64,000 nt of DNA from Candidatus Thorarchaeota archaeon. GTDB taxonomy: Archaea; Asgardarchaeota; Thorarchaeia; Thorarchaeales; Thorarchaeaceae. The stretch is from contig JAOUFI010000002.1 of NCBI GenBank assembly GCA_029858305.1, positions 32,001 to 96,000 of the forward strand, written 5' to 3'. The first letter of the stretch is position 1, and the number at the start of each line of letters is the position of its first letter. The notes beneath the pieces are model-generated. The model was not told the origin of the DNA and made no database searches. It worked only from the letters and a program-made list of their open reading frames with translations. The position numbers and the translations under genes were made by a program. Of the stretch, positions 24,174-54,100 are shown in pieces.

Positions 24174-26030
24174 TTATCCCCAATGCAGCGGTACTCCACA
24201 GTGCTCACAGACAATTGTTTCACCAGGTAAAGCTCGCTTGATAAGCCCAGCTCCACAATGTGGGCAAGCAATTTTCTTTGGTGCAGTATCGTCGGTTTTT
24301 GTTTGAATCCTTAGGAGAACCTCACGTAGATTCTCGCGCATCTCTGCCAGCATGAGCTCCAATTTTGTTTCATTATTGCTAGCAACCGTGATTCTGATTA
24401 CAAGATTCTCCTTTGATACTGAGCCGACAACAACAAACTCATCACCGACAAGTGCCTTTCCGTAGTACCATACCTCAAAACCGGTTTTAGAATCTGCTAG
24501 CTCATCGATAAAGAGGACATTGTGTTGCTCAATGATATTCTTTACAATTTCCAGCATCTCAGCGGGGTCAGCATTTGCATCCATCTGATATTCACATGCA
24601 TGTTTGGTTTGAAGCGTCGAATCCATTAGAGCTTGAATATCTGAGAGCGTTTTTGTTAGAAGATAGGCATCACGTGCAGCAGAGGCATGTGCCAATGGAA
24701 CAGATACAACTGATTCACCATGTTTGTTACATGAAAGCTGTACATCTGCACTTTCAGCCATTTCTTTGATTTGAATTAGATCGATGGGATTATGGCATTT
24801 ATGGCATTCAAAGAGTTGCATATAGGTTCTTGAGAGTGTTTCTGGATGAGCAGTAGTAGAGAGATAGCGGGTGCTCCCATGACCGTTACGACATTCAATT
24901 TTTAATTCAATGGTGTTTTCTTTGACTTTTGAATCCCTAATTAGAATCGGTGCAGAGCATTTAGTGCACTTGAGACTCTCTTCAATGGTTGACTCTCGAT
25001 CAATTTCAGATTCTCTAGTTTCAAGATGTTTATAGATATCAGGTTTGATTCCTTTGCGCATTTTATTATGCAGTGGGCAGACAAGCTCAAGTTCAACATT
25101 GGTACCGTTTACTTTCTTTCCCACGATTTCCGTAAGGAGGTCGCAATCATTGCACTTCATGATTCCACCCACAATCGCGTCAATTGCTTCCTCGTCAAGG
25201 TCCGTCGGTTGATTCATCTCGATGGAATGACCGTTTGGACAAATACATTTCAATTTGTACTTGTTCTTATCCAAATCGATGGCCCGAATTGAAAGCTCGT
25301 TATTACATTGAGTGCATTTGAGCATCGACCTCACAATAGTGCCCTCAGATAGAGCCTCAGTAATTTTCTCAATCATCCACGCGTGTTTTGCGGGCATCTC
25401 TTTCTTTGTCCTACCATGTGCAGGACACGACATCTCTACACGAGCCTTGTCACCCTTTACGGAAACATCAAGAACTTGACACGGTAAACCGCATTGCTCA
25501 CAATGAATGAGCCGTTTGAAGACAGTTTTAAGAATTGAAGGATCAGCCTCAGTAGGCGCATAACGAATCTCTTTATGCCCATTTGGACAGCGATACTTGA
25601 ACTCCATAATCCCCTTTTTATCGTCTATTGATTGCGTTGAGAGGATTTGTTTACAACGAGGACAAGTGAGCGAATCGAGAATTGATTTTGCACTATTTAC
25701 AGTACCTTGGATATCTGTTATGGCGCTGTGATAGAATGATGGATTCTTTTTCTTCAACGGTCCATGAATTGGACACAGAAACATGTACTCAACTTCGTGT
25801 CTACCCAAATCTGTGTGCACTAGAGACATTGTAGAACCACACACAACGCATGTGAATAGACCCTTGTAAATTTCGGGAGCCATGCTATCTACTTGATACC
25901 GTGCAACGTCTCTCTTGCCTTTGTGACCGTTGAAACATTGACAATACAGCCGCACCGTGCTACCACGCATCTCGCTTCCGAGAATAGAGAAAGGTTCCTT
26001 ACATTTCTTGCAAACGAACACATCTATCAA
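24174..26030 (-). CDS. Multi-zinc-finger protein (8 CxxC...CxxH/CxxxH units), alpha/beta domain, terminal zinc ribbon
   Basis: Alternating CxxC..CxNGH and CxxC..CPxHG units; final CPHC..CEHC. Confidence 0.8.
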   Translation of the reverse strand: MIDVFVCKKCKEPFSILGSEMRGSTVRLYCQCFNGHKGKRDVARYQVDSMAPEIYKGLFTCVVCGSTMSLVHTDLGRHEVEYMFLCPIHGPLKKKNPSFYHSAITDIQGTVNSAKSILDSLTCPRCKQILSTQSIDDKKGIMEFKYRCPNGHKEIRYAPTEADPSILKTVFKRLIHCEQCGLPCQVLDVSVKGDKARVEMSCPAHGRTKKEMPAKHAWMIEKITEALSEGTIVRSMLKCTQCNNELSIRAIDLDKNKYKLKCICPNGHSIEMNQPTDLDEEAIDAIVGGIMKCNDCDLLTEIVGKKVNGTNVELELVCPLHNKMRKGIKPDIYKHLETRESEIDRESTIEESLKCTKCSAPILIRDSKVKENTIELKIECRNGHGSTRYLSTTAHPETLSRTYMQLFECHKCHNPIDLIQIKEMAESADVQLSCNKHGESVVSVPLAHASAARDAYLLTKTLSDIQALMDSTLQTKHACEYQMDANADPAEMLEIVKNIIEQHNVLFIDELADSKTGFEVWYYGKALVGDEFVVVGSVSKENLVIRITVASNNETKLELMLAEMRENLREVLLRIQTKTDDTAPKKIACPHCGAGLIKRALPGETIVCEHCGVPLHWG

Positions 26031-26105
26031 CTACCTTGGCGCAGCACGTAGTCAATCTCATAAATTCCTCGAGCTTCCTAATATGTACTCCGCATACGAG
26101 ACTAA

Positions 26106-28382
26106 TCATTGTAGATATAATGCAATGGTAAGAGAATGAGTGCAATACTTACAACGAATTGGCAGACGTTTTCCCAGATCTTCCACTTGATCTGTTTCTA
26201 GGGGTGCTCCACATCGTAGACACACCCATGAATCCATTGTGTCAGCAAGCTCATCAATGGTTGTAGGTAGCATTGATACATCCTCACCAAGGGCTTCTAC
26301 TTTTACAACTGAGTGACGACCATTTTCTGGACCAGATATTAGGAGAACAACCGCTATCTTTCGCTTTGTATACTTGCCTTCAGCATAGCCACGGATGGTT
26401 CCTATGAATTCACCCGAAATTACATGCTCCTCAGTATCCACAACATGGAAATTCTTCGTAGGCAATATTTTCTCAGCCTTCGTGAATAAGACCTTAGCAT
26501 TCCAATCAAGAGTCTGCTCTTGCTGAGTCTTTTCAAGACTGGATAGAACAAGGTTAAACTCTGCAGATGTTTTCTTAGAAGGGGTCAAAAGATCGCAGAC
26601 TGAACGAATCAGATATGGCTCTACACTCATTGTGTGTAACTGATCGAGAAAATCAATGTATGAAACTGTTGCAACAACTTTTCCCTGTACACAATCCTTT
26701 GTTGGGTAGAACGTGAACTGAGGGCTTCTAAAGCCGCCTACTTCGATTCTAGATATTGTTTTCACACTCTCTCCAGCCAGCTCCATACAGTCTACCGGAT
26801 ATGCAACAATACTCACTGTTACATTTGTGATAACATATCCACTATTATTGGCTACTTTGACCTTGTAATCAAATTTACCTCCAACAATCTCACAACCACG
26901 CATAGCCTTAACTCCGCCATCTGGAGAATCAATGGATTCACCCTCCGCTTCTAGAGTTTCAGGTGGTTTGGGTTCACTCACTTCAACTGGAGGTTTTGCC
27001 TTGTCAGCCAGCATTTCTGCATATGCATTCTGCATAGCTTTGGCATGGTCAGGAGGAATATCAAATACGTACTTTCCGTGAATTGAGCACAATTGAACAA
27101 CCCGGTCCTCACGACCACCAGGTTCCACATATACTAAATCTAATGGCTCATAACACTCAGGACATTGGAAGAAACGCTTGTAAAGATCGACAAGAGTCTC
27201 TAGCTCCAATTCAGGTTTAAACAGTCTCTTACTTCTATGACTGTTTCTACACTCTACATCAAACTCTACGAGTCCTCGACGTTCTTCAACATCTCTTAGT
27301 GTGAGCGGCATACTACATTTTTCGCAGCTTAGACTTCTTACAATAGATGGGAGGCGGTCAATTAAGTGTTCATGGTCAGAAATAATATTGAAGATGGAAG
27401 GGGTTGCTTCTCTTTGCATCACACCATGAATTGGACAGACAATCTGGAATGCAACTTTCTTTGCACTCTTCCTCTTACTCAGAATATGTGTTAAGTGTCC
27501 ACAATCATCGCATGTGAGTATAGCAGCTGTTATCCGGTTAGCAACTGCATCATTCCATGTGAGTGGAAGTATCCTCTCTGTAGTGACCTTATTGCCAGGG
27601 CAAATGCACTTCAACTTGTAGCCAGATTTATCATCCTCAATACTTCTTATTGCCAGAGGTTGTCTGCACTCATTTGTAGTGAGAGTGGCTCGAAGTACTG
27701 CATCCTCAGGTATCTCAGAAATTGATTCTCTAAGTGGACCTACAAATTGTGTAGGAATGTCCTTCTTAGTAACACCATGAACTGGGCATGCGACATATAC
27801 ACGTGCTGAATTACCTCGTTCTTCTAAATCAGCTATATGTCCAGGAAGTCCACATTTATCGCAATGAACTACTCGCTGCAGAATTCTCTTTAGAAGAGAT
27901 GTTTCCAAGTCACTTGGGAGGTACCTACTTGCCTTGTGATTATTTGCACATCTTACCTCGATCTCTATTATTCCTCGACGTTGCTCTACCTCGCTGATAG
28001 CATATACAAACCCACACTGTGGACATCTGAAAGAATCAATGATGGCTCTTGGACTATCAACCTCTGCAGCCGCAAGCTGTACAGTTGAAAGAAACTCTCT
28101 TGGAAATTCACGTTTCTCCATCCCATGACGCGGGCAGAGAAAGATTCCCTCAGTCTTTGATCCTTGGATAATAGTATCAACAAGTGTCATGTTCGAGCCA
28201 CACTCTGTGCATACAAACATCTTCTTGAAAATCTCTGAACCAACATCGCTTATCTGATGCTCGGCGAGTCGCCTTGCACTTTTATGACCATTCAGACATT
28301 GTGTTTCAAGAGTCAGGATGTGGTCTTGCATCTCAGCGTTTCGTACGTACAGGGGTTCTTGGCATTTCTTGCATGAGAACAC
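26106..28382 (-). CDS. Paralogous multi-zinc-finger protein with Ig-like and alpha/beta domains and terminal zinc ribbon
   Basis: Same 8-unit array (unit 5 degenerate), Pro/Glu linker, beta-rich domain, final CLRC..CKYC. Confidence 0.8.
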   Translation of the reverse strand: MFSCKKCQEPLYVRNAEMQDHILTLETQCLNGHKSARRLAEHQISDVGSEIFKKMFVCTECGSNMTLVDTIIQGSKTEGIFLCPRHGMEKREFPREFLSTVQLAAAEVDSPRAIIDSFRCPQCGFVYAISEVEQRRGIIEIEVRCANNHKASRYLPSDLETSLLKRILQRVVHCDKCGLPGHIADLEERGNSARVYVACPVHGVTKKDIPTQFVGPLRESISEIPEDAVLRATLTTNECRQPLAIRSIEDDKSGYKLKCICPGNKVTTERILPLTWNDAVANRITAAILTCDDCGHLTHILSKRKSAKKVAFQIVCPIHGVMQREATPSIFNIISDHEHLIDRLPSIVRSLSCEKCSMPLTLRDVEERRGLVEFDVECRNSHRSKRLFKPELELETLVDLYKRFFQCPECYEPLDLVYVEPGGREDRVVQLCSIHGKYVFDIPPDHAKAMQNAYAEMLADKAKPPVEVSEPKPPETLEAEGESIDSPDGGVKAMRGCEIVGGKFDYKVKVANNSGYVITNVTVSIVAYPVDCMELAGESVKTISRIEVGGFRSPQFTFYPTKDCVQGKVVATVSYIDFLDQLHTMSVEPYLIRSVCDLLTPSKKTSAEFNLVLSSLEKTQQEQTLDWNAKVLFTKAEKILPTKNFHVVDTEEHVISGEFIGTIRGYAEGKYTKRKIAVVLLISGPENGRHSVVKVEALGEDVSMLPTTIDELADTMDSWVCLRCGAPLETDQVEDLGKRLPIRCKYCTHSLTIALYLQ

Positions 28383-28489: not shown

Positions 28490-28978
28490 CTATTCTTGCT
28501 TGTCTTTATCAGGGGCATTTGCTTCTTGCTTTTCAGGTTCTTTTGCAGTCTTTTCCTCTTTTGCCCTTTCGTGCATCTTGGAGTCTATAAGTTTCTGCAA
28601 TCGTGTCATAACAGGAAGCTCACCACGCTGGAGAGCTAGAGGTATGGCAAAATACACGATTATGACACCACCAATCACTATCAGTGGAGGAGAAAGCACC
28701 GAAATCACTGGAACATAAATTATGTAATATCCTATAATCTGCATCAATCCACCGAAAAGCAGTCCTGGCCAAGCAAGTGTCGCGGGTCTTTTCAGCGAAG
28801 TGATTGCAGCATAAAAACAGACAAGGACAAATCCAGTGGAGCGGAATAGTCCATTTAGAAATTCCAAATAGTAGCCTAGCAACCAAATGAGTGCTCCGAC
28901 CAGCATCATCAAGAAATTCATATCTAGTACGATTGACTTTGAGCCATTCTCACGTGCTTCAATCATAGTAATCACCAA
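28490..28978 (-). CDS. Hypothetical 4-TM membrane protein
   Basis: Four hydrophobic helices and a charged C-terminal tail. Confidence 0.7.
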   Translation of the reverse strand: MVITMIEARENGSKSIVLDMNFLMMLVGALIWLLGYYLEFLNGLFRSTGFVLVCFYAAITSLKRPATLAWPGLLFGGLMQIIGYYIIYVPVISVLSPPLIVIGGVIIVYFAIPLALQRGELPVMTRLQKLIDSKMHERAKEEKTAKEPEKQEANAPDKDKQE

Positions 28979-29036: not shown

Positions 29037-30311
29037 TCATTTACTTCCTGTAGCATCTACGCTTTCCAGCACTTTATCCGCTGATTTCTTTAATTTTGAA
29101 CGATAACCTCGTGTCGTGTAGACACGCACAGGTTTCAAAATTCTGGAGAAACTCCTTGCCATCGGGCTTAGGTCACTCAGTTTCCAAAACTCGTATCCAC
29201 TTGATCCACGTTCGAATAAAGCAATCCCATCAAGATCGAACTTTCCAGGATAGAAAGTGACAGATGCGCGATCTGGAAAATCGATGTAAACATTATGAGA
29301 ATCAATATCCGCATCCTCAGCAATCTCTTGTTCGATAGAAAAGAGACCATCAGGAGTTGACAACTTATTCAGAAATGCAGGATCGGAGATAGCACGTGTG
29401 CTGACCAATTTTATCAGATAACGTTTGTTGAAATCAGAAAAGATTCGATTTGCAGTTTTGAGTTCTTCACTTTCCTCAGAGTCGACACGAAGAAGTCTGG
29501 TTAGAAAAGTGAGGTCATCATTTTTGAAGAATTCAAGAGTGTTGTCCAGAGGTGAAGGGAAAAGCTGTGAACCAGCTTCATCAAGAACTCGCAATAACAT
29601 CAATTCAGCTGCACGAACAGTCTTATGGAAGTATACAGCATCAAACATGTTGACAGCTGCAGACAAGTATGATTCTAGGGTGAATAGAGAACCACGTTCT
29701 ACAGCAATCTTGTTCTTTGTAATGCGTGTTGCATCAAATAGTCTGTGAAATTCAAGCTGTGCATAATCCACCCCTGCAAAATATGAGTCTCGTTCGAGGT
29801 CGTCAATGAGTTCTGGATTGATAGGACAGTTCTTGATGTCAAGCCTAACACTTTTAATAGGCACACCACGTTCAATCACATCTTGTATCTCTGATTTTGA
29901 AAATCCGTGATTTTCTATTATTGTTCCTATTTCCGTTTTACCAAGAATAGCCTTAGTAATCTTGAGGGGATTGGAACCTCGCATAGTCAAATATTCTTCC
30001 ATAACATTTGACCATGGACCATTTGCGAGCATTAGTAAATAGGACGCCAACCGACCTTTCTGTATCTCCTCGATAGTAGCTCCAAGATATTCTAAGAAAA
30101 TCCTGGTCATATGTAGAAAACCAAGAGTTCTACCGAGGAGTGCAATGTCCGCCCCGGGATAGACTAATGAAAGACCAGCGGGACCCTTGATATACCTAAG
30201 TCTCTGAGATATCCGATGATCAATAAGCTGTTTCTCTACGTCTGAGAGACTTATGTAACCATGAATGGGATCCTTGATTTGGAGGACAGAGGGAAAATCT
30301 GTAATAGGCAT
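29037..30311 (-). CDS. HD-superfamily (SAMHD1/dNTPase-like) protein with degenerate active site
   Basis: IKDPIHGYI, QRLRYIK, VYPGA, RDSYF.GV and VYFHKTVRAAE retained; metal-binding His/Asp residues absent. Confidence 0.85.
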   Translation of the reverse strand: MPITDFPSVLQIKDPIHGYISLSDVEKQLIDHRISQRLRYIKGPAGLSLVYPGADIALLGRTLGFLHMTRIFLEYLGATIEEIQKGRLASYLLMLANGPWSNVMEEYLTMRGSNPLKITKAILGKTEIGTIIENHGFSKSEIQDVIERGVPIKSVRLDIKNCPINPELIDDLERDSYFAGVDYAQLEFHRLFDATRITKNKIAVERGSLFTLESYLSAAVNMFDAVYFHKTVRAAELMLLRVLDEAGSQLFPSPLDNTLEFFKNDDLTFLTRLLRVDSEESEELKTANRIFSDFNKRYLIKLVSTRAISDPAFLNKLSTPDGLFSIEQEIAEDADIDSHNVYIDFPDRASVTFYPGKFDLDGIALFERGSSGYEFWKLSDLSPMARSFSRILKPVRVYTTRGYRSKLKKSADKVLESVDATGSK

Positions 30312-30375: not shown

Positions 30376-32265
30376 TTGCTGCTAGGAGAACCTTCATCAA
30401 TGAGTAGGTTTAGTGCCCTATCTATGAACCAGCTGTGGTTTGCGATAATGGTTTGCCTGATGCTGTTTACGCCATCAGATTGCCAAGCTATTGTAAACAC
30501 AGCAGAGGTAAGTATCACGTCAGAAGCCTCACAAATACCAGACCGCCGGATCTATGGAGAGAATATTGCATCAGAGGTATATGCAATTCCAACCTACACT
30601 GGATTTCAAGACCTGGTACATAAATTCACTGAGAATCATTCCAGATGGGTCATGGACCAGGCAATGGTCGATAGAGGAGCTAATATGTATGCTAGAAATT
30701 ATATCGTTGAGCAGCTCAAAGATAGATCTTCGGGGCGTATTGAGGTGGAGATAATTGGTAATCACAAGAATGTAGTAGGTCGACTTCCAGGATATTTGCC
30801 AGGAGATGATAATCCAGTACTTGTAGTATCTGCCCATTATGATTCTGTAAAGGATTCAGACGGGGCTAATGCCGATGGAAGTGGTATCGCGGTTGTCCTT
30901 GAGCTTGCATATGCAATGTCGCAATACATGTGGCCGCTGGATATCTACTTCATTGCGTTTAATGCACTCTATTCATTTCAATTCATGAGTGGTAGTCCGG
31001 AAGTAGCAAATGTGCTCCAACAAAGAGGAATTGATATTCTCGCCATGTACAATGTCGATACCATTCTAGTTACAGATTCAGCACTTCCCTCGGATGAACG
31101 AATCCAGATAGGCTATCTTTCAGGATCCGTTGAAACCTATCACCAAAGCAAATACTGGGGAGATCTAGCACGGATGATTAGCAATAACTATGGAATGAAT
31201 TCATTCGTTCCGATTCCATCTGGTATATTCTACTTATGGGAAACCTCAGATCAGGAGGCATTCTATCAGCGCGGTTATAATAATATACTATGTGTCTTCG
31301 AATCAGGACTCGCAATAGATGGTAGCTATCACAATGTGAATGATCGATGGGACTATCGACAGCTAAACTATAATCTAGGTAAGGAAACCGCAGCTGTCAT
31401 TGGAGCCAGTATGGCTTTCACAATGGGTAGGAAATATGGAGAACCTGTCCAACTCAAATACAATTTTATTATAGGTGGGGGCCGCATCGAGAAATTCTAC
31501 ATGGCAGTCACCACATCCACAATATTGAACATTACAGTTCGTTGGTTCGGTGGCTCAACCTCATACAACGTGTACAATCCAAGTAATACTCTTGTAGCTA
31601 GCGCAATCTGTGATTATACTTCAGCCTGGGTTCCAACTAACATCCTGAATATACCTGTAACCGCTAAGGGTCTGTATGCTCTTGAAATTGAAAATACAAA
31701 CTTTGTCAGTGTTGGTTATGAGTTGACTATTACGTATGATTCAGATATCGACGGTAACGGGATTCTGGATAGCCAGGAATACTGGCTTGATGAGAGTCTG
31801 TTTGTGACAGACCAGGACAATGATGGTATCAGTGATGCAGAAGAGATATTCCTAGGGACAGATGGCAATCAGGTTGATTCTGACGGCGATACGATGGATG
31901 ACAAATACGAAGTTGACATGGGATTCGACCCCAATGATGCATCAGATGGAAATCTCGACGCTGACTCGGATGGACTAACAAATGCACAAGAGTACTCTGG
32001 GGGATTGAATCCGTTTTCATCTGATTCGGATGGTGACTCAATAGATGACCTATGGGAATTAGAGAATGGTCTTAATCCATTGATAGATGACGCAGCACTT
32101 GATCCTGATGGGGACGGGAGGACGAATCTTGAGGAGTATCTAGCCGGCACGAATCCGCAGATTGCAGAATTCAGTTCACCTCCAATTCTTTTCATAGTCT
32201 CGCCAATTGCCATCGTTGCAACTATCGCAGGATTTGTTTACTTTCGAAATAGAAAATTTGTGTAG
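30376..32265 (+). CDS. Secreted M28 peptidase-like protein with Asp-rich Ca-binding repeats and C-terminal TM (probably inactive)
   Basis: SAHYDS and GANADGSG present, EE motif absent; DxDxDG repeats; start uncertain. Confidence 0.8.
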
Positions 32266-32278
32266 ATAAAGAGGCGAG

Positions 32279-34096
32279 ATGATGAATAAGATTCTGTTAG
32301 GAGTGTTCATTTGTGTCTCACTTTTCTCAGCCTCATTTGGAGTTACAAGTTTTCCTCATTCTCAAAAGACCATTGACACAGTATATACCGTTTCTGAGAA
32401 CCTAGAGAGAGTCTATGGTGTTGACTACTCGAGAACCATTTTCCAAACAATTTCAGCGAATTCATTCAAAGATTATGTCATCAAGTTGACCGAGAACGGT
32501 TCTAGGTGGATTCAATCACCCACATTGATGAGCGAGGCTAATTCTGCTGCTAGGAATTGGATTGCCAATGAGCTCATCGCAGTTTCTAACAGCAGAATAG
32601 AGGTCGAGGTTCTAGGAGAATATCATTCGGTTCTTGGGCGCCTACCTGGATACCTTCCAAACAATGCACCCGCAATACTTGTCGGAGGTCATTATGATGG
32701 TCTCGCTGTTGGAGCTGGTGCAAATGATGATGGGAGTGGAGTAGCTGCCATCCTCGAGCTTGCTCGAGTCCTATCACAATACAACTGGCCACTTGACATT
32801 TATTTTGGAGCGTGGAATGCAGAAGAAATCGGATTATTGGGATCTGGTGAAGTAGCTCATATATTGAGCTTGAGAGGTGTTGAACTACTTGTTCACTATA
32901 ATATCGATATGCTCTTGGTTCCCCATCCAGAGAGGCTATCTGTTTTAATGGCATATCCTGTTGGGTCATATCATGATGGGAAGTATTGGGCGGATCTTCC
33001 CAGAGCATTGAGTAGCAATTATGGTCGTAATGGGATTGAACCGATAATCTCAAGTGATTTTTCTGGTTGGCAATCGTCCGACCATTGGCCATTCATCCAA
33101 AGGGGCTATCTGAGGTCTCTGTTTGCCCATGAGAGTGGATTTGCCTACGATTATGCATATCATACAAGCGGAGATGTGTGGAATAATCCACTCTATAATT
33201 ATGGAGTAGCAATCGAGGGTGTAAAGGCAATCGGTGCAAGTATTGCTTTCACCATGGGAAGAGCATACCAACAATTAATCCTTGAGAACCACAAGATAAC
33301 TCTGAATCCGGGATCTCAGAAGAATTATTCAATAACTATCACAGGACAGACAATAATCAATGTTACAAGTCGATGGTGGGGTGGATCAATTTCATTCAAA
33401 CTGTACAATCCGGAGAATCAACTTCTAAAAGAAGTAATACGAGATCAGACATCACCGTGGGAGATGTCAGTTGTCATTCAGCAGACTGTTAATACAGAAG
33501 GCGTTTACAAGTTGTTCGTTCTCAATCAGGGGAGTACTAGTACCGGATGTGATTTGACCTATGAATATGACTCAGATATTGATGGAAATGATGTACCAGA
33601 TAGCGAAGAGTTTTGGTTTGATGCAAGCTACTTCATGCTCGACAGTGATTTAGATACTCTCAGTGATGGGCAAGAAATGATACTCGGAACATCTTGGGTC
33701 AATGCGGATTCAGATTTTGATTCTATACCTGATAATTGGGAAATCAATTTTGGACTAAATCCACTGGATCCCAGCGATGCATTAGGAGATGAGGATGGAG
33801 ACACACTCACTAATTTGGAGGAGTATCAACATAACAGTAATCCACTTCTAGTTGATTCTGACTTCGATCAAATGCCAGATGATTTTGAGGTTGCACACAA
33901 TCTTAATCCAGCTGTCGATGATTCCCAAGAAGATCCTGATCAAGATTTAGTCTCGAATCTTGATGAATATCTTGAGGGGACAGATCCGCAGTATGCTGAG
34001 CTGCGCCTGGAGAGATTTGCCATACCCATCACAGGTCTTTTGATTGTGATTATCATTATAGCAGCTGGAATCGTTCTATGGAACAAGAAACGCTAG
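32279..34096 (+). CDS. Secreted M28 peptidase with Asp-rich Ca-binding repeats and C-terminal TM
   Basis: GHYD, GANDDGSG, NAEEIGLLGS, NIDM, SDH and YHT motifs intact. Confidence 0.9.
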   Translation: MMNKILLGVFICVSLFSASFGVTSFPHSQKTIDTVYTVSENLERVYGVDYSRTIFQTISANSFKDYVIKLTENGSRWIQSPTLMSEANSAARNWIANELIAVSNSRIEVEVLGEYHSVLGRLPGYLPNNAPAILVGGHYDGLAVGAGANDDGSGVAAILELARVLSQYNWPLDIYFGAWNAEEIGLLGSGEVAHILSLRGVELLVHYNIDMLLVPHPERLSVLMAYPVGSYHDGKYWADLPRALSSNYGRNGIEPIISSDFSGWQSSDHWPFIQRGYLRSLFAHESGFAYDYAYHTSGDVWNNPLYNYGVAIEGVKAIGASIAFTMGRAYQQLILENHKITLNPGSQKNYSITITGQTIINVTSRWWGGSISFKLYNPENQLLKEVIRDQTSPWEMSVVIQQTVNTEGVYKLFVLNQGSTSTGCDLTYEYDSDIDGNDVPDSEEFWFDASYFMLDSDLDTLSDGQEMILGTSWVNADSDFDSIPDNWEINFGLNPLDPSDALGDEDGDTLTNLEEYQHNSNPLLVDSDFDQMPDDFEVAHNLNPAVDDSQEDPDQDLVSNLDEYLEGTDPQYAELRLERFAIPITGLLIVIIIIAAGIVLWNKKR

Positions 34097-40872: not shown

Positions 40873-43800
40873 TTGACGAAAAGTAAGAGATTTTCAAAAA
40901 TGGGGCTTAGACGGATATTCATCATTGGTATTTTGATTCTAAGCATAGGCTTTGCTTCACACAGTACAACAACTGATTTTTTAACATCTAATTTTGAACC
41001 TCAAGTAGCACATCCCTCTGATACTCATACATCTTCATCTGTTGAAGGAATAGGAAATAGTCTTCTTTCAGCTGCGGGATATTCCCGTAATATCAATAAT
41101 TTACAATTTTCACTAGCGAACAGCTACTCAGACAGTGAGTCACATAATCAAATCATAGATTTATCATCCTACCATATTGATGGTTGGTCATTGTATGAGG
41201 TTGAAATTTCTACTACAAGAATTGTAGCATTAGCAGAACGAGAGATAATTGGATCCAGAACTAGTCCAGGTCACATCTTATTCAACATATCAAAATATGA
41301 TACTGGATATTATGACCAGTTGACACAGGGATTCTATGGTATGAGTCATGATGGTAAACTAGAAAATATCTCACTCTTGTATACTTCATCATCATATGAT
41401 CCCCTGTATCATCATTATGCATATTTCGACCTTAGATCAGATTATTCAGATGGGGCTACAAATATGGTGTCCTCTGTCCCATTAGGAAATGTAGGACTTA
41501 CTCCGACCTGGGCAAGTGTAACAGAATCCACAACTCTAGATGCAGACACAATATATTATGCAGTAATGAACGGGACCAGACTTATAGAGGTCTTCGGTAC
41601 ATTCCCAATAATTCAATGGTATTATGAGGATTCAGAAGGTACCTATGAAACGCGACGCCATACTACAGAATATATCCCCTGGAGTTCTAGTAGACCATAT
41701 GAGGCTCTGCTTAACTATACTTATATTCCGTGGAATACAACAAGTAATTCTGCTCTTGAATTCTCGGATCCATCTATCATAGATTTGCGAGGAAATTCAT
41801 CATTATTGGCAGGTTCTCAATGGAAATTCGATTCTCTTACTAATGTTTCACAAATACAATTCTCATCGAATCAATCTATATCAGTAGAATACGATCTTAC
41901 ACTTAGATACAAGCAGTCTGTCACATCCTCCACATCTTGGTATGCAGATTCTTCTAATTCGGTCATTTTATGGAATATAACAACATCTATCGATTATCCA
42001 GAACTAGCTGGTTCTCAAGATAGAAATCTAACTGTGTTGGTTCCAAGTGACTGGACTGCAAGTCATTTATTTAACATCACTTACCCAACTCAATATTTCG
42101 ACCATTTCACACAAATAGAATCCAGCGTAAATTGCTTTGGTCTGGCGGATGAAACTTGGATATTGGAATGTACATCTCCAAATTATATGAAATCGTTATC
42201 GATGTTTGATACGAGTGATGATAGTATTATCACTGATAAAGTAAGTATATCTGTCACAATGGATATCAATGCAACAATTGAAGACCAATCATCAAATCCC
42301 GCAGCAAATGGTAATGCGCATCTTGTAGTGTACTATCAAGCCGCAGAAGAATATTCTGATGATTACTCAGTAACATCAGGAACATCGCATTACCAATGGG
42401 ACATCTCAACAGATTCATCATCTAATGGTCTACACACGATAGATGTGTATTGGTCAAATGGAACAGAAGTAGGATATCAATCAAATGATGTTGTAGTATT
42501 CTATGAAACAACACTCGTAGCAGATGAATATACCATCAATGACTACACTGATGACTCCTTTTACATTGGAATTGACTACAACCAAGTATTTCCAGCAGCA
42601 GGGATTGACTCATCAAGTGCAGATGTCACCTATTCATTCGGATCTGTGGTGAACCAGTCTCTCACTGACCAGAGTAATGGAAGATGGGATGCAACTGTTT
42701 CAACAGCTAGTATGTCACCAGGACTACACACATTGACTATCTATGCTGAAGGATATGCACTCGAAAATCGGAGTATAACCATAGATGTAGATCTTATTCA
42801 TGATACCTTACCCCTGACAATTATTTATTCCAACATTTCTTATGTTGAAACTACAGAGCTTTCTGTTGCATACGAAAGAGTCGGAAACATACCAATTCCT
42901 GATGCACATGTCGAAGTGACAATTGGAACAACTACATGGCAGCTAAATTTTGATGAGGGCAGCGGTACCTACAAGATGATTTTCAATGGAACCGATATTG
43001 ATCCAGGTTTTGGGATCCATACCCTCACTATTAATGCATCTCTAGCAGGGTATAAATCGCAAAGCTATACTAAGACACTCATTATTCATGAAGAGAGTAC
43101 CATACTCAATATAGAATGGTCAGGGAGTACTGACATCACCTATGTTGAGAGCGTGACCCTCTATGTCGACTACCAGATGTCCAATACAACTCCAATCTAT
43201 CCCGCTACTGTTGAGGTCACCATTGATACTGACATCTATGTGATGAACTGGAATGGTGGAACCGGGAGATACTGGTATCAATTCAATGGCAGTGATTTAC
43301 TTCCAGGATTTGGATTTCATAATTTGATAATTAAAGCCTCTAAATTTGGATATGCCTATCGGAGTGACCTCACACAAACACTGAATATAACTGAAGAGCC
43401 AACAACACTGGTTCTGTCTTGGTCCAATGGGAATGAAATATCATATGTGACCTCTACAATGTTGATTGCAAAATACAATCAATCAAACGGATCTCCATTA
43501 ATTAATGCAACAGTTAGCGTTACAATAGATACAGAATCATGGCTAATGGTGTGGAATACTGATACATTTGCCTACGAGTTGACCTTCAATGGAACCGATT
43601 CAATACCGGGTTTTGGGACATTCGATGTATCAGTTCTTGCATCACTTTATGGTTTTGAATCAAAACCCGATGATAACGAAACACTCTATATACACGAGGA
43701 GAGCACCTTATTCAACATAGAATGGTCAGGGAGTACTAATATCACCTATGTTGAGAGTGTGACCCTCTATATCGATTACCAAATGTCCAATGCAACTCCA

Positions 43801-46800
43801 ATCTATCCCGCTATAGTTGAAGTCATCATTGATACCGACATCTATGTGATGAACTGGAATGGTGGAACCGGGAGATACTGGTACCAATTCAATGGCAGTG
43901 ATTTACTTCCAGGATTTGGATTTCATAATTTGATAATTGAAGCCTCCAAATTTGGATATCAAAATTATTCCAATATTTTCCAGACATTGAATATTACTGA
44001 AGAACCCACAACACTTGTTTTGTCTTGGTCAAATACCAATAGCATTACCTATGTCACCTCTACAACGCTAATTGCAAAATACAATCAATCAAACGGATCT
44101 CCAGTAATTAATGCAACAGTTAGTGTTACAATAGATACAGAATCATGGCTAATGGTGTGGAATACTGATACATTTGTGTACGAGTTGACCTTCAATGGAA
44201 CTGATTCAATACCGGGTTTTGGGTCATTTAACATATCAGTAATTGCGTCATTATATGGCTTTGAATTAAAGCCCGATGACAACGAAACACTCTTTGTTGA
44301 TTTAGAACCAACCTCAATCACAATCGCTTGGTCAAATACTGGAAGCATTACCTACATAGATCAAACTACTCTCATTGTATCCTACAGAATGAACAATAAT
44401 TCAGTAATTCCAATTGATGCTGTGGTTAATGTAACAATTGATGGATTTCCAACGTGGGATCTTGATTGGGATTGGGATTATGGAACTGAAACATATCGTC
44501 TTGTCTTTAATGGTACAGACATACCCCCAGGTTTCGGCACGCACAATCTAACCATTAGAATTGGTAAGTATGGCTACGTGAACCACGTGAATACCACCCT
44601 AACTCTCACTATAGATTTAGTACCAACAATCCATGAAGTATATTGGTCAAACACTAATTCCATTACATACATAGAATCAACAACTCTTACAGTCAATTAT
44701 ACAATGACCAATGGAACACCCGTTACTGATGCAATAGTGAATGTCTCAACAGTTGCGGGATTCTGGCTGATGAAGTGGAATAATGATACATTTATGTATG
44801 AGTTGGCTTTCAATGGAACCGATTCAATACCAGGATTTGGAACTCATATTCTGACCATACAAATAAGAAAGGTTGGTTATTCGGATCCTGGAAATCTCAC
44901 AGAAACCTTGATTCTGGATTTGGAACCAACAAGTATGAATATGGCTTGGCTGGATTCACCAACCATCTCATTCCTCGAATCGACAACTCTTGTTGTGTAC
45001 TATAGAATGAGTAATACTTCTCCGATTTTAGATGCTACAGTTATAGCTACAATCGACGGTATCCAGTACGAACTCGTATTGCATCCAAGTGGCTCATATA
45101 GATACACCTTCAGTGGAACAGATAATCTTCCGGGAATTGGAACACATTTACTGAAAATTGATGCGAACAGAACTGGATTTGACTCTAAATCTGATGAAGG
45201 CGAGGTCTTGATAATTAATGAAGAATCAACATTCATTGATATCATATGGTTAGATAACAATACCATAACTTTTGTTGAAACATCAATTCTAGTCATAAAT
45301 TATACAATGACTAATGGTTCTCCGATTGCAGGAGCGACAGTTAATGCCACAATAGATGGATTTCCAGCTTGGGACCTTGTATGGGATATTGATACACAAA
45401 CATATCGCTTAACATTCAATGGAACAGATGTCCCGCCTGGATTGGGATTCCACAATATCACAATCAGAGCTGACAAATTCGGATACGAAAGTCGGAATGG
45501 TTTGACCAACATTACTTTAGATAGAGAACAATCATACCTCGTTGTAAGTTGGATTCCTGATAATGATATTTCATACATGACTAGTTCTATTCTCGTGGTT
45601 AGTTATAGGATGACGAACTCTTCGCCAATTTCTGAAGCTACTGTGAATGTTTCAATTGGAGAGGGTTCATGGCTGATGAAATGGAGTGTTGCTAATCAAG
45701 ATTACAGACTTCAGATCAATGGAACCGATATACCACCTGATTTAGGAAACTATACTATGACTATTGAGGCTACAATGTTTGGATTCTATGCAGCATACAA
45801 TCTAACAGCTCAGGTTATACTTCGAGAAGAACCAACAAGTCTAGATGTGCATTGGGCAAATGGAATAAACAATCCAAGTTTCCTTTCTTACACATATCTC
45901 ATAGCAGATTACCTTTATGGAGATTCAACACCTATTGTGGATGCCATTCTGAATGTCTCAATAAATTCATTCATTTTTCGAATGGGATGGAATGCTAGTG
46001 GTTTCTATCAATTGAAAATCAATGGTTCGGACACCTATCTAGGTGTTGGGAATAATTCAATCACAATAAGTGCTGAGAAATATGGGTATGTCACTAAGAT
46101 GAATACTACTAAAGTTGTGATTCCTGTGGTCCCAACCAAACTTACTCTTGAATGGGAATTCTCTGATACGATAACCTATGTAGAATATACTACACTTCAT
46201 GCATACTACGTAATGTACAATGATTCTTTGATTTCTGAAGCATCTGTCAATGTGACGATAAATGGAATGACACTGCCTATGATTTGGAGTTCTTCTAGTA
46301 ACTCATATGAACGAACATTTTACGGGTCTGACAGTTCGTTAGGTATCACATCATTTCCAATTCTAGTCGAAGCAGCCATGATTGATTTCCAGAGTCTATC
46401 AAATTCTGATGAGATATTAACTATTCAAACTGAACCTACTACACTTGCGATATCTTGGATTGGTGGAGACAATATCACTTACTTTCAACAGACCACACTA
46501 TCAGTACAATTCGTCATGTCTAATGGATCACCAATTTCAATTGGAGTTCTTAATGCGACTATAGGAGGAGTCCTTTTCGACCTTAATTGGAATATCATTA
46601 GTGAGGCATACGAAGTGGTAATCTATGGAGATGATGCCCGATTGGATTACTTGGACTATGATGTCTTGATTAACGCATCAGCATACGGGTTTGTCGCTTC
46701 AGTAGATACTTACCAATACTTCACTATCAGACTAGAAGATACATATCTTGTCATTGATTGGGTTCCGAGTAACACGATATCTTACTTGGACTCAACAGTA

Positions 46801-49800
46801 TTCAGAATCTTTTACCGATATGCATCCAATCATTCTCCTGTTTTAGGAGCAGTTGTTAGTGCTTCAACATGGGTAGCGAATTATAACAGCAGTTCTGGAG
46901 CTTATGAGATAATATTCACAGGCTCTGATTTTCCAACTCCAATACCGGGTACACACTCTCTTGATGTTGTTGCCTCAAAATCAAACCATCAATCTCACAC
47001 TAATGATCTTGAAGAAATCACCATCACTAAGGAAAGCACATACATCGAGTCTTGGTGGCTCAATGATAATAATACAATAACTTTCGTTGAGAATACGACT
47101 ATCTATATCAACTACTCAATTGCTGCTTCAGGCGTTTCAATTGTGGATGCTAACGTTACTGTCAGAATTGGCACAACCATATGGGATACACTCTATAATC
47201 CAATTCTGGAACTTTACTATTTCACATTTATAGGAGATATGGATCCACCAGGACTTGGTGTCCACGGGTTGTTTATTTCAGCATCTTATAGTTTTCATGA
47301 AGGATATCAATCTGCAGTAGATAACTCGCAAATCTTAGAAATTGAATCAGCATCTGTATCAATTGATAGCTATTGGATTGTTAGTGGTACTATAACATAT
47401 CTACAACAGACAACACTTGTAGTAAACTATACTTTATTGGATGGAGAAGCCATTCCACTAGCACTAGTCAATGTAACAATTGGTCAAACATTCTGGTATG
47501 CACAATGGGATGAATTGAGTGAAACCTATCGGTTGACTTTCAATGGGTCAGATTCTCTACCAGGTTTGGGATTCCACGAACTCAGTATCCGGGCAAATCG
47601 AACTGGATTTGACTCACTTACTGATAGCTCTATGACTTTGAATATCATTGAAGAATCAACCACTACGAGTGTTCTTTGGAGTAATTCTGATAGCATAACA
47701 TACTTTGAGCATACGTATCTATTTGTCAGGTACAGGATGAGCAATGGTTCAGACATTCTTGGTGCTAGCGTCAATGCCACAATAGGTTCTACAAAATGGA
47801 TCTTAATTTGGAATAGCACGCAAGGAGCTTATGGAGTCTTATTCAAAGGATGGGATAGCCCTCCGGGACTAGGTAGTCATTCAATCCTGATTAACGCAAC
47901 AAAACATGGTTTCGCATACATTGAGAATTCAGTTGAGGTTCTGACATTACTAAAGGACCCAACTACAATACAAGTTTCATGGTCAAATGGAAATAACATC
48001 ACATATGTTGAAACTACAACGATAATTGTACAATATAAAATGAGTAACGGTACCCCAATATCCACAGGAACTGTTATTGCAACAATTGGACTAGATAGTT
48101 GGGAACTTCTGTGGAATGTATCATCACAGGTATATTACTTCACATTTTATGGGAATATGAGTCCACCAGGTCTTGATACCTTCTCAGTTCAGATTGATGC
48201 ATCTAGTGCCATTTTTGCATCCCAATCGACTTCGGAATTTCTTACATTGAGAGAGGAAGGAACAGTTACTATTGTATCATGGACGACTGCAACATTCGAT
48301 TGGACCCAGAATGTTGTAATTGGAATTGAATACCGAGATAGCTATGGTAGATTGGTCAGTGACGCAACTCAGAAGACGATATCTGTAGATGGTTCAGAAT
48401 TTACCCTATCAGGGACAAATGGAACCTATTGGTATTCATTCAACAATTCATTCGGTTTAGGGCATCACAATGTTGTCATGAATATCAGTAAGTTTGGATA
48501 TGAATTTGCTGTGAATGCAACAGTTAGCTTTGATATTATTGAAGCCTCAACGAGTCTTGAACTAGTCTGGAGTATGACTACAATTGACTACTTGGGGCAG
48601 ATCACTCTGACAGTAGATTACACATATACGGGTACAGGTGATTCGATTCCAGTAGGTCTAGTCAATGTGAATATCACAATTGATGGAATCACGACTCTCA
48701 ATTTGACACCAATTGGAGACTATTGGACCATTACATTGAATGGAGATTTCTTAGATTTAGGAACGCATAGTGTCGTTATACTTGCACAAGCCTATGGCTA
48801 CAACTTCGCTGAGGATAGTGACAGTCTTACAGTTAATGAGGTCTCTACAGGTACATCTGGAATTTCGTGGTCACCTTCAGACCTTACAATAGAATTCACT
48901 GGTTTCTTACAACTTGTTGTGGATTATACATACGCTAGCGGAGATGTTCCAGATACAGCAACAGTGAATGTCACGATTGATGGTCATTTCTATGAACTTG
49001 ATTATCTAGTCGGTGCTTGGCGAGTGACAATTCCTGGTAGCATCCTAGGTGTTGATGTCTTTGATGCTCATATCAGTGCATGGCTCCACGGATATGAGTT
49101 ACAGACCTTTACTACTTCAGGAATTAATGTCACACTTGCAGCTAATTCATTCTATGTGACTTGGGATCCATCAGATCTAACACCAACCTACATTGATACG
49201 GTAACACTTACTGTTGCCTATATACAGGACTTTGAACCAATAGAAGACGCCACTGTTCAACTATTCATCAATGGAACTCGCTATGAGCTAATCTATAGCT
49301 CTATTGATGAGAGATGGTTCCTCAGTATTGATGCATCAGATATTGATTTGGGAGTATGGAATGTTACTGTCACAGCAAACAAAACAGGATATGCAGAAGG
49401 GTTCCAAATGGATCTCCTCACAGTAGTTGAAGCTCCAACAATTCTTGATATTCAAGATACTGGAGATACTCTCTATTTCGATGAAACAACTACAATAGAC
49501 ATCTACTACCAATTAACAAATACAAGTGCAGTTCCCGGGGCAATAATATCATTCACTCTTGATGGTATTGAACAGACAATAACTTGGAATGGTTACCATT
49601 GGACAACTACTCTCGATGGGACAGAGCTAGGAGTTGGTGTCTATACTTACAATATCATAACGTCAGTATATGGATATGAGACTCAGATGGACACATTTGT
49701 GATTACTATACTAAGCGTCCCAACTTCAATGATATCAGATTCGAGTATTGTGATGTATGCTCGTGACTTTGTTTCATTCAGGTTTACATACATTGATGAA

Positions 49801-51186: not shown

Positions 51187-54100
51187 ATGAGAAAAGCAAT
51201 AATATCGGTCATCCTGATAATTACAATCCTGAGTGTACCATCGGTCGGAACTGACTCAAAATTACTAAATTCTTCCCAAACCAATGATATTGATCAAATC
51301 GGGTTTCAAGATTCATTACTTTCTGAAATAATTCAATCCGGAAGTACCTTACCAATATTACAAAAGATGAACAGATCATTTTCCGACCAACTTACAGTGC
51401 TAGCTAATAGCTATGCATCTCCAGATGCTCACGCCAATACTATTGATCTTGTTTCATATCAGATACCTGGATGGACATTAAATAGAGTAATAATTGACAC
51501 TCATAACATAACAGCCATTTGTGAAAGAGAATTAGTTGGGACAAGTGCCACACCTTCACAATCATCAAGCTTTGAAATATACGAACCACCATTGACACCT
51601 GATGAATATATCCCGGAACTAGCTCAAGGATTTTATAATATCACTCACGATGGACAACTGCAGAACATTTCACTACTCTATAGGTCTCTATATGATCCAT
51701 CAACTCAAAATTATGCCTATTTTGACATTAGATCAGACTATCAAGATGGCAGTACAAATATGGTTTCTTCGGTTCCGCTGGGAAATGTAGGACTTACTCA
51801 GACTTGGGCTAGCATTACAGAAACAGTTGTTCTTGACGCAAATACAGTATACTATGCTGTTATGAATGGAACAAAGTTACTTGATGTCGGTACCTATCCT
51901 CAAATCTGGTGGCTCTATGAGAATGGTTATGGTGATTTTCTAACTACTCGATACGCTACTGAATTCAGTGCCTGGAGCTCTAATTTACCCTATGAAGCGA
52001 TTTTGAATTATACCTATATTCCATGGAATACAACCTCGAATTCTGCCCTTCTATTCTCAGATCCAACTTCAATAGACACTCAGCTGAATGGAAATCCTGT
52101 GTCAGGTACTACTTGGACTGTTACTTCAGTCACCAATATCACATCTATCTCAATGACTACCAATCAATCTGCCAATGTTTACTATGATTTGATTTTGTGT
52201 TATGAAACAAATAATATTGGATATACTGAATGGAAAGGTCAGTCATCTAGTAATGTAATCATGTGGAATGTCACAGCTGATATCACATTCCCTACTGCAT
52301 CTAATATTGTTAGTCGAACAATGGACATTACGAATATTCCATTAGACTGGAATGCAACTGGTCTGTACCTAGCCACCACTCCATCAGGTTCATACGTCAA
52401 ATCAGGAACAACTGTGACTTGCTCGACCTTGAGTGATGGGACTTGGACACTGACTGTAACAGCACCAAACTACGTACTGGGTCTTGCCCTATCAGATTCA
52501 TCAAACAGTTTGCCAATAATTCACAAAGTGGCTAACAATGTAATTGTGGATATCGATGCTACCATTGCATCGGATGGAGGTACTACCAATCTCTCGGTAT
52601 TGCAAACCAGTACACTCATCTATTCTCCAACAGAGATTCCAGCATCTTCAGGAGCTGCAGCTTTTTCATGGAATATTAGTGCAACAACAACTGGAAATGG
52701 CACCCATTCTGTAGAAGTCTTTTGGTTATCAACTGATGAACTCGAAGCAGGATACCGAACACAGGAAGTCTTTGTCTTTCATTCCACAACACTCCTTGCA
52801 GATGATTATTTCATAAATGCATTCACAGATGATAGTTTTAGCATTGGGATCGACTTCAATCAATTTTATCCTGCGAAGAGCTTAGATGCGCCCGTAGCAA
52901 ATGTTACCTACTCCTTTGAGAGCGTTATAAATCAAACAATGAATAATCCGGGAGGAGGTCGATGGACAGCACTCGTGGACACGACTGGTATGAGTAGTGG
53001 TATCCGTACTCTCACCGTTTATGCAACAGGATATGCCTTGGAAAACCGTAGTATTGAGATATCAGTGAATCTTGTTCATGCAACTTCTCCTCTTATTTGT
53101 AGCCTCACACCAGATTATAACATCACATATTTGGAGAGTACAAATCTCACCGTATCGTACAAACAACTCAATGGAACGAATATTCCTTGGGCAACAGTCA
53201 ACGTCACCTTTGATGGTTCTACATATGGTATGGTATGGAATCAAATTGCAGAAGTATATTGGATTCAGCTTAATGGATCTGATTTCGTCACTATTCCAGG
53301 CAACACCACACTCACAGTCAATGCCTGGAAATTGGGTTACGAACCGCAATATAACGATTCAACTGAAATCACGATTTCTGCTGAAACAGGAGTCTATTTC
53401 GATGTCGTCTGGAATCCAATAGACCGAAACATCACATACATCGAGCAAATCACCATCACTGTGAACTACACATTCAACTCAATTCCGATAGATAACACTT
53501 GGGAAGGAGTATGGGTGAGAGTAACATTTGTTGGCTATCCATACGTGAATCTCACCTATAACCCAGTTTTGGAGATTTGGCAAGTCACCCTTGATGGAAG
53601 TGATTATCTGGGCACAACCATTGTAACAGTTAGAGCGAGTGCTACAGGCTATAGTCCTGTTCAGAATGTATTCGACATGATAGTGATGGAAGATGCTTCA
53701 TCGCTCAGTGGTTCATGGACTGCAAATTCATATACGACTAACTACGCGACAGGCGCTCCGCTAACTATTATTGTTCAAGACTCGATTGGTTCTGCAATAA
53801 ATGATGCCAATTTGACCGTCACAGTGAATGGAATTGTTACTAATTATGTACCTGGTGAATACAGTATCATCATAGCACCACCTCAAACGGCGGGAATCTA
53901 TAGTGTTAATGTGACAATGATCAGGTATGGATACACTACCACTACCATATTTCTATCTTTGACAGTACTTGCTACAACTGAGCTCGACATAATCGTTTAT
54001 GACAGTGAATATGAACAGTGGAACTTGAATGTCACTGTAACGTATTCAGACCTTCTCTATACAACTCCTATAACTGGAGCAACTGTGATTGTGACCCTAA

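Follow-up and report, generated by a model that had tools for sequence, protein, structure and literature searches.

The appendage domains, or ears, of eukaryotic vesicle coats are the interaction hubs of those coats, and their origin bears on the rise of membrane trafficking. Adaptin and COP ears have pockets for peptide motifs on the top of the platform (a Trp/Phe site) and on the side of the sandwich, and an FxxxW motif. Here we describe two tandem genes, P0001 and P0002, from a 64,000-nucleotide stretch of DNA (the window) of a Thorarchaeota-type Asgard archaeon. According to structure predictions, P0001 ends in a complete ear and P0002 in the platform half of one, each set on an array of eight zinc-ribbon-like units.

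Ears have been reported from archaea. Eme 2023 (PMC10307638) reports that Asgard archaea have, at the Pfam level, domains of the alpha-adaptin C-terminal and beta2-appendage types, described there as 'not fused to each other'. The 33 PF02883 rows that we examined in its Table S3 are labelled Lokiarchaeales/Lokiarchae-, Helarchaeales and Sifarchae-, and none carries the label Thorarchaeia; no zinc array occurs in these rows, many of which are ear-plus-ribbon proteins of about 330 aa, some anchored by a transmembrane (TM) segment, and two are surface proteins of about 1,900 aa. Makarova 2024 (bioRxiv 10.1101/2024.02.06.579148) describes 'adaptin appendage regions', made of an immunoglobulin-like (IG) domain and a TBP-fold, in archaeal systems of the endosomal sorting complex required for transport (ESCRT); one such region has a zinc ribbon, one is joined to a GOLD domain via a TM linker, and in Asgard proteins described there the ear is accompanied by Vps28-C and longin domains. 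In a 2026 preprint that deals with structural clustering, only 'AP gamma adaptin' is mentioned, among the known eukaryotic signature proteins.

The archaeal proteins of these two sources share with our pair the IG and TBP-fold, often a C-terminal zinc ribbon, and are soluble or TM-anchored. Hidden Markov models (HMMs) of our module reach such ear-region proteins with E of about 1e-11 and 4.3e-5, and the P0002 platform motif 'WYYG...VGS' resembles, by eye, the 'WYFG...IGQ' of sequences in Table S3. They differ in company: the Asgard ears of Makarova 2024 are joined to Vps28-C, SB or longin domains in ESCRT contexts, whereas P0001 and P0002 have neither those domains nor that context. Asgard ears, and ears as tails of membrane proteins, are already in print. 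A zinc-ribbon array fused to an ear was not found in any paper by full-text literature search, and neither this trunk nor a gene pair with one full and one platform-only ear was found in print. An earlier note on this DNA, made from the sequence, had spoken of a novel zinc-finger rod carrying the ear pair; novelty holds for the fusion to the zinc array, but not for the ear, given the Asgard ears of Eme 2023 and Makarova 2024.

The two open reading frames (ORFs) run in the same direction on the minus strand with 75 nt between them. P0001 (26106..28382, 758 aa, GTG start) comprises a zinc array, a hinge, an ear of sandwich and platform, and a C4 ribbon; P0002 (24174..26030, 618 aa, TTG start) comprises a zinc array, a platform and a C4 ribbon. 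Both ORFs of the tandem proved to be real genes, and they are paralogs, 36% identical over 454 aligned aa with a single gap (E 8e-116). Their comparison gave additional off-register self-matches, which come from the internal repeats, and the DNA-level repeats at the pair (spacings of 348 and 699 nt) only mirror those of the proteins. Neither protein has a TM-like segment in a hydrophobicity scan. For P0001 we found 198 homologs at E≤1e-3.

The ear of P0001 is preceded by a hinge (residues 456-490; 26913..27017, minus strand, as for all parts of the pair), which is acidic, Pro-rich and poorly conserved; this linker between array and ear is 35-37 aa long and variable, with an isoelectric point of 4.2 and a net charge of -6 over residues 456-492. 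There follow an Ig-like beta-sandwich (residues 491-592; 26607..26912; pLDDT mostly >90), the IRSVCDLL linker with the alpha/beta platform (residues 593-716; 26235..26606) and the C4 zinc ribbon (residues 717-758; 26109..26234; CxxC-x19-CxxC, C721/724/744/747). In the AlphaFold model of this C-terminal module (mean pLDDT 88.5) these parts appear as nine strands that form the sandwich (model residues 7-108), then the linker, a domain ordered beta-alpha-beta-alpha-beta4-alpha (115-232) and the ribbon. P0001 thus shows, in predicted structure, an Ig-like sandwich and an alpha/beta platform as one unit, and the unit lies at the C-terminus after a flexible hinge; P0002 lacks the hinge.

Two structure searches agree on what this module resembles. 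All of Foldseek ranks 1-12, 14 and 15 were AP-2 alpha/beta2 appendages or COPI chains (234-253 columns, E 8e-10 to 1.5e-6). A VIA-align search, which is independent of Foldseek and covered 48,161 representative chains, placed alpha-adaptin at the top (Z 15.2 over 210 residues, root-mean-square deviation (rmsd) 4.2 Å), followed by beta2-adaptin (Z 14.1) and gamma-COP (Z 13.3); the P0001 platform matched the platform-only AP-4 beta4 ear with Z 13.0 (rmsd 2.5 Å, 113 residues), and the best single-sandwich match reached Z 12.4. When the Foldseek chains were re-aligned by VIA, the COPI chain 9qpq_H was best (Z 17.8, 224 of 243 residues, rmsd 3.1 Å, 14% identity); we take this chain to be beta-COP from its residue range, 722-953, as the search tool does not name the subunit. 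With re-alignment included, the ranges were 15.2-15.7 for alpha-adaptin, 14.1-14.6 for beta2-adaptin and 13.3-13.6 for gamma-COP, both subdomains being covered.

P0001 thus shares with the COPI beta/gamma-COP and AP-2 alpha/beta2 ears (9qpq_H, 1r4x, 1pzd, 1w80, 1b9k, 1e42, 3h1z) the sandwich-then-platform unit, at Z 13.3-17.8 over 204-224 residues, and its C-terminal place on a long scaffold after an acidic flexible hinge. In contrast to these shared features, identity is 8-14%, there is no Pfam match, the trunk is a zinc-ribbon array here and a HEAT solenoid there, and here a C4 ribbon caps the platform. The two-subdomain match extends to the GAE and platform domains of BBS9 and BBS7 (6vbu, 6xt9; Z 11.8 over 187 and 10.4 over 189 residues); it is weaker than the COPI/AP-2 match, and the BBS proteins have an N-terminal beta-propeller.

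The beta-sandwich, DLLTP linker and alpha/beta domain that the earlier note had read in the 758-aa protein are all seen in the model, and the searches bear out its appendage-like fold over both subdomains. A 'P-x4-5-F-x3-W-like' connecting segment, cited there as joining sandwich and platform in coat ears, fared less well: the linker-helix of P0001 reads P601-x7-F609-x3-L613 and has no Trp at that place. Within the ear, C564 and C596 (window about 26691-26693 and 26595-26597) are invariant in 49 of the 49 module copies of our alignment of orthologs and paralogs (A2, columns C80 and C112), each beside a conserved Asp (KDCV.G in a sandwich loop and SVCDLL in the interdomain linker); they may form a metal site between the domains, or simply pack in the core. 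Invariant patches include AEGKYT, MLPTT and KNF.

The 618-aa P0002 ends in the alpha/beta part only, as had been proposed. Its last 160 residues align solely with the platform-plus-ribbon half of the module (hhalign 95.6%, E 1.2e-8, 135 columns), and its VIA matches among ears are to platforms only. The platform-type domain without sandwich (residues 459-580; 24291..24656) sits directly on the zinc array, and the C4 ribbon (residues 581-618; 24177..24290; CxxC-x15-CxxC, C589/592/608/611) closes the protein, so that a terminal C4 ribbon is indeed present in both; the Cys of the P0002 ribbon are invariant across 26 orthologs, and the P0001 ribbon has weak Pfam DUF7479/DZR matches under the cut-off. 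P0002 residues 457-579 matched the beta2-adaptin platform with Z 12.2 (rmsd 2.9 Å, 104 residues), and those of alpha-adaptin (Z 11.3), AP-4 beta4 (Z 11.1) and gamma-COP (Z 10.4); generic helix-grip folds, with Z at most 9.9, fell below the ear platforms. The closest known counterpart is the AP-4 beta4 appendage (2mj7; Z 11.1 over 114 residues), an ear that naturally consists of the platform alone; P0002 differs from it in that its platform follows a zinc array without a hinge and ends in a C4 ribbon. The appendage fold proposed by the earlier note is, on these models, supported for both proteins.

The ear-plus-ribbon module is widespread in Asgard archaea. Its HMM retrieved 710 clusters (50% identity) at E≤1e-3 from 1.84 billion representatives, 421 at 1e-10 and 177 at 1e-30; the bearers are 133-2,867 aa long, and the module is C-terminal in most of the 150 listed. 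Of 251 sampled genomes of the phylum, 115 had a match; the window's own family accounted for 56 (of 59 genomes) and a second family for 47 (of 54), whereas several other families had none (0/26, 0/19, 0/16). In the majority of cases the module forms the cytoplasmic tail of a membrane protein. An architecture survey of 14 paralog loci (Pfam and hydrophobicity scan) gave two classes. Membrane proteins begin with a signal peptide or a TM segment at the N-terminus, followed by an ectodomain (SBP_bac_5, NosD/beta-helix, LVIVD+TSP3 or of unknown type), a single TM helix and the ear plus ribbon as a cytoplasmic tail; soluble proteins include the zinc arrays, proteins with two ears in tandem after a helical N-terminus, and proteins in which leucine-rich repeats or HEAT repeats precede the ear (LRR-ear, HEAT-ear). 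Outside the family the same HMM finds PCI/UFM1-ligase/DDRGK proteins that have VPS28-C as their last domain (E 1e-11 to 3e-8), and the A3 platform HMM reaches a Loki-type ear-plus-ribbon protein of 335 aa (E 4.3e-5).

Several of these relatives deserve description. The VPS28-C proteins of about 785 aa (L086:145-2490, L088:943-3309, L089:949-3318) combine DDRGK, E3_UFM1_ligase and PCI with an ear sandwich and a VPS28 C-terminal domain (E 1e-5 to 5e-4), the ESCRT-linked architecture described in Makarova 2024. In genome G049, of another Asgard family, a 616-aa protein (L084:1447-3294, minus strand) carries a propeller and then a full ear plus ribbon (HMM E 6.5e-66); the propeller passes Pfam cut-offs (Beta-prop_BBS7 30.9 against 27 bits, PHTB1_N/BBS9 29.2 against 28.6), and the order resembles BBS2/7/9. 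The window's own genome encodes a 406-aa HEAT-ear protein without ribbon (G000:C129:34343-35560, plus strand; L083:979-2196 / L092:1501-2718; HEAT_2 E 5.8e-6, module HMM E 1.7e-40), a miniature of the trunk-and-ear layout with full-length orthologs in 16 of 41 same-family genomes. In 10 of 14 loci a convergent Ras-family GTPase gene lies no more than about 40 nt from its 3' end; identity at these loci is 73-100% for the GTPase and down to 31-73% for the HEAT-ear gene. Another Asgard family has a HEAT, ear and ribbon protein (L085) with a weak Adaptin_N match (E 0.016). Ear-tail genes often stand in tandem, as two to five co-directional copies of about 350-430 aa (G215:C15, G087:C18, G137:C2, G194:C100, L071, L072, L080), and one double-ear gene has, two genes upstream and on the opposite strand, a gene for an arrestin-like protein (L062:2602-3453, minus strand; Arrestin_N E 2.4e-18).

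We then consider the trunk of the pair, residues 1-455 of P0001 (27018..28382) and 1-458 of P0002 (24657..26030). All 16 units of the two proteins align to the consensus phi-x-C-x2-C-x21-C-x2/3-H and strictly alternate: odd units are of 54 aa and end in CxNGH, even units are of 62 aa, end in CPxHG and carry an additional short helix. The actual period is thus a two-unit module of 116 aa, present in four copies per protein (spacings 54/62). The eight alternating units read by the earlier note are found in both proteins, with the reservation that unit 5 of P0001 (residues 233-287, TTNEC...CICPGNK) has lost its ligands, lacking the first Cys and the His, a loss shared by the aligned orthologs; intact C3H sites number eight in P0002 and seven in P0001, or 15 of 16 units overall. 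The CxxC knuckle, second ligand pair and three-stranded sheet of the zinc-ribbon superfamily are present, metal binding being predicted only.

In the full-length AlphaFold model of P0002 (pLDDT 90.1, pTM 0.76 over 618 residues) each unit forms three strands and a helix, and this pTM implies that the units are predicted in fixed mutual positions rather than as beads on a string. Each array of eight zinc-ribbon-plus-helix units is thus predicted to be one defined superstructure. No analogue of the whole array was found: Foldseek with the whole P0002 model returned only beta-propeller and repeat noise (TM-score ≤0.13, rmsd >17 Å), and the VIA list for that model was filled by platform matches, the array never having been searched as a separate query. 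Pfam gave only weak ribbon matches to the units (Trm112p 30.4 bits, no single stretch passing), and no Adaptin_N or HEAT trunk was matched in either protein.

Related loci, 80 in all, were recovered from species-representative genomes. All are metagenome-assembled genomes of Asgard archaea, whose titles read mostly Thorarchaeota, some Promethearchaeota and several 'uncultured archaeon' or 'archaeon'. A P0001 ortholog is present in 50 of the 80, at a fixed synteny that we count as evidence of selection, and a P0002 ortholog lies directly downstream of it in 25 of the 50 (26 counting L015, whose contig ends inside the second gene); two of the 50 loci end too early to judge. The conserved order runs from M28 peptidases and an HD_assoc_2 protein through a small membrane protein to P0001 (and P0002); on the far side of P0002 are convergent UbiX, DUF2070, and PadR followed by two ABC transporters. 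The small membrane protein (28490..28978, minus strand, 162 aa, three hydrophobic segments, no Pfam family) is co-directional, 107 nt upstream of P0001, and has a tblastn match at the same place in 29 of 50 loci; the co-directional 424-aa HD-associated-region protein (29037..30311, minus strand; Pfam HD_assoc_2 E 9.5e-15) is upstream in 39 of 50.

A quick maximum-likelihood tree of the arrays, whose root is arbitrary, splits the sequences at a single branch into 15 of P0001 type and 26 of P0002 type (SH-aLRT 93 and 100); species without P0002 fall within the P0001 clade. The tree suggests that the duplication is old and that losses followed, or else that evolution sped up once the gene had duplicated. 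That P0002 is a recent lineage-specific duplicate, an idea taken from synteny, was dropped, as the quick tree does not support such nesting. One relative, P0005, is 100% identical over the ear region (741 aa, a later start being called) and has the source label 'Candidatus Odinarchaeota archaeon'; nearly all other relatives and related loci are labelled Thorarchaeota.

On balance we consider it somewhat probable that P0001 and P0002 are soluble cytoplasmic scaffold proteins with an adaptin/COPI-type ear as the working end, serving protein docking and bridging or competing at a shared hub. The ear module may dock other proteins via short motifs or partner domains, by analogy with eukaryotic ears. 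Given the number of unrelated ectodomains and scaffolds that bear this ear, the likeliest role of the module is to connect diverse proteins to a common cytoplasmic partner, or to one another; the zinc-array proteins would be the soluble members that bridge, cluster or compete at this hub, and where a species has retained both genes, P0001 and P0002 may work as a pair.

Several observations weigh against this picture. The Pfam adaptin and COP families (PF02883, PF02296, PF09066, COP appendage) were unmatched at E≤1 by P0001, by P0002 and by the isolated module, and the proposed homology to eukaryotic ears comes from structure prediction; with adaptin clusters the ESM Atlas feature scores, 0.77 and 0.76, did not reach the level at which that tool is trusted. 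In 22 of the 50 loci there is no second gene, the convergent UbiX gene lying within 800 nt of P0001, and with P0002 missing beside so many P0001 orthologs the heterodimer suggested in the earlier note cannot be obligatory. ESCRT, ubiquitin, GTPase, coat and trafficking genes were sought in the conserved neighbourhood of the 50 loci and none was found; nothing there ties the pair to vesicle coats, to whose origins that note had thought it possibly related.

Searches with other profiles were similarly silent. PF02883 had no match in the window's own genome, nor in control genomes. In a search for the medium (mu) and small (sigma) subunits of an adaptor heterotetramer, PF01217 and PF01602 were not found in that genome (88.9% complete), the controls being silent or off-target. 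Pfam and NCBIfam name neither protein and gave sub-threshold zinc-ribbon noise only; VPS28 and EAP30 were unmatched in both (Pfam), and searches of PDB sequences with the module profile, P0002 and the unit profile gave nothing significant. The f9 proteins match PF02883 only at E 0.16-0.17. As membership of a Pfam family is lacking, we file the pair as ear-like by structure and in the archaeal ear-region family by sequence, not as Pfam adaptins. An NCBIfam 'Sel_Asgard' match (16.6 bits against a cut-off of 132) was dismissed, as were other weak family matches, and a transitive sequence bridge to Pfam failed, the 335-aa Loki-type protein having no PF02883 match at E≤1.

It is possible, although we think it unlikely, that the proteins are nucleic-acid-binding regulators, the zinc ribbons reading DNA or RNA and the TBP-like platform and ribbon serving oligomerisation or regulation. 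Zinc ribbons often bind nucleic acids, some relatives have been named by their sources after RpoP/RPC12, Elf1 and topoisomerase zinc ribbons, the unit profile weakly resembles the LysW and bL33 ribbons, and platform-like folds include the RNA-binding KA1/METTL16 VCR domains (Z 7.3-8.8). However, the arrays are near neutral (net charge -1 and +5 over about 455 aa), no DNA-binding family was matched by either protein in Pfam or NCBIfam, the best platform matches are ear platforms rather than nucleic-acid binders, and the same ear is found on the tails of membrane proteins.

Equally improbable in our view is a multivalent receptor for ubiquitin-like modifiers, akin to ESCRT-0, in which the zinc units would bind ubiquitin- or UFM1-like proteins as NZF and UBZ fingers do and the ear would hand cargo to ESCRT. 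Makarova 2024 proposes that ear-bearing multidomain Asgard proteins are analogous in function to ESCRT-0, and describes ESCRT-I-like proteins rich in zinc ribbons; our module HMM reaches the UFM1-ligase/DDRGK/PCI/VPS28-C proteins of another Asgard family. Yet no ubiquitin-binding finger family was matched by P0001 or P0002 in Pfam, the conserved neighbourhood holds no ubiquitin or ESCRT gene, and the units (54-62 aa, beta-beta-beta plus helix) are much larger than NZF fingers.

Least probable is a convergent or generic fold, an Ig sandwich with a helix-grip lipid or small-molecule binder (START/Bet v1/AHSA1-like) unrelated to coat ears: helix-grip proteins do match the platform at Z 7-9.9, and the low identity to ears (8-16%) and missing profile link to Pfam adaptins would fit, but ear platforms exceed helix-grip proteins by 1-3 Z units in both models, only ears, at Z 13.3-17.8, and BBS9, at Z 11.8, cover the two subdomains with their order and mutual placement preserved, against at most 12.7 for single domains, and the family is linked by sequence to Asgard proteins that others already read as ears.

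Beyond the scaffold reading that we favour, a bolder version can be put forward only as a long shot: the ear plus ribbon would be the common plug of a Thorarchaeal cargo-sorting network, carried as a cytoplasmic tail by dozens of surface proteins, and P0001 and P0002 would pair into a heterodimeric rod, bearing a full ear and a platform-only one, that clusters these tails and recruits membrane-remodelling factors (small GTPases, HEAT-ear proteins, ESCRT). If true, the AP, COPI and BBSome appendages would descend from the very ear on which this adaptor system is built. The findings do not show coat formation in these archaea. They do reveal, at the level of predicted structure, a COPI/AP-2-shaped ear in Thorarchaeota that had escaped Pfam-based surveys; its trunk resembles that of no adaptin, and in one member of the pair the sandwich appears to have been lost naturally, as in the AP-4 beta4 ear. 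The pair, the ear-tailed membrane proteins and the HEAT-ear gene beside its conserved small GTPase encode expressible proteins with which one can ask what an archaeal ear binds.

Some further features of the window and its surroundings were noted. A sigma-70 promoter/terminator scan found 16 against 14.5 expected, which is no enrichment, with a model ill-suited to archaea. Beyond the HD_assoc_2 gene are two tandem M28-peptidase paralogs (629 and 605 aa; 30376-32265 and 32279-34096, plus strand), which stand beside the cluster in 31 of 50 loci; the first has a bacterial-type TSP3 repeat below the Pfam cut-off, and both end in a hydrophobic stretch. Two very long ORFs, of 3,371 aa (40873-50988) and 1,513 aa (51187-55728), lie further along the plus strand.

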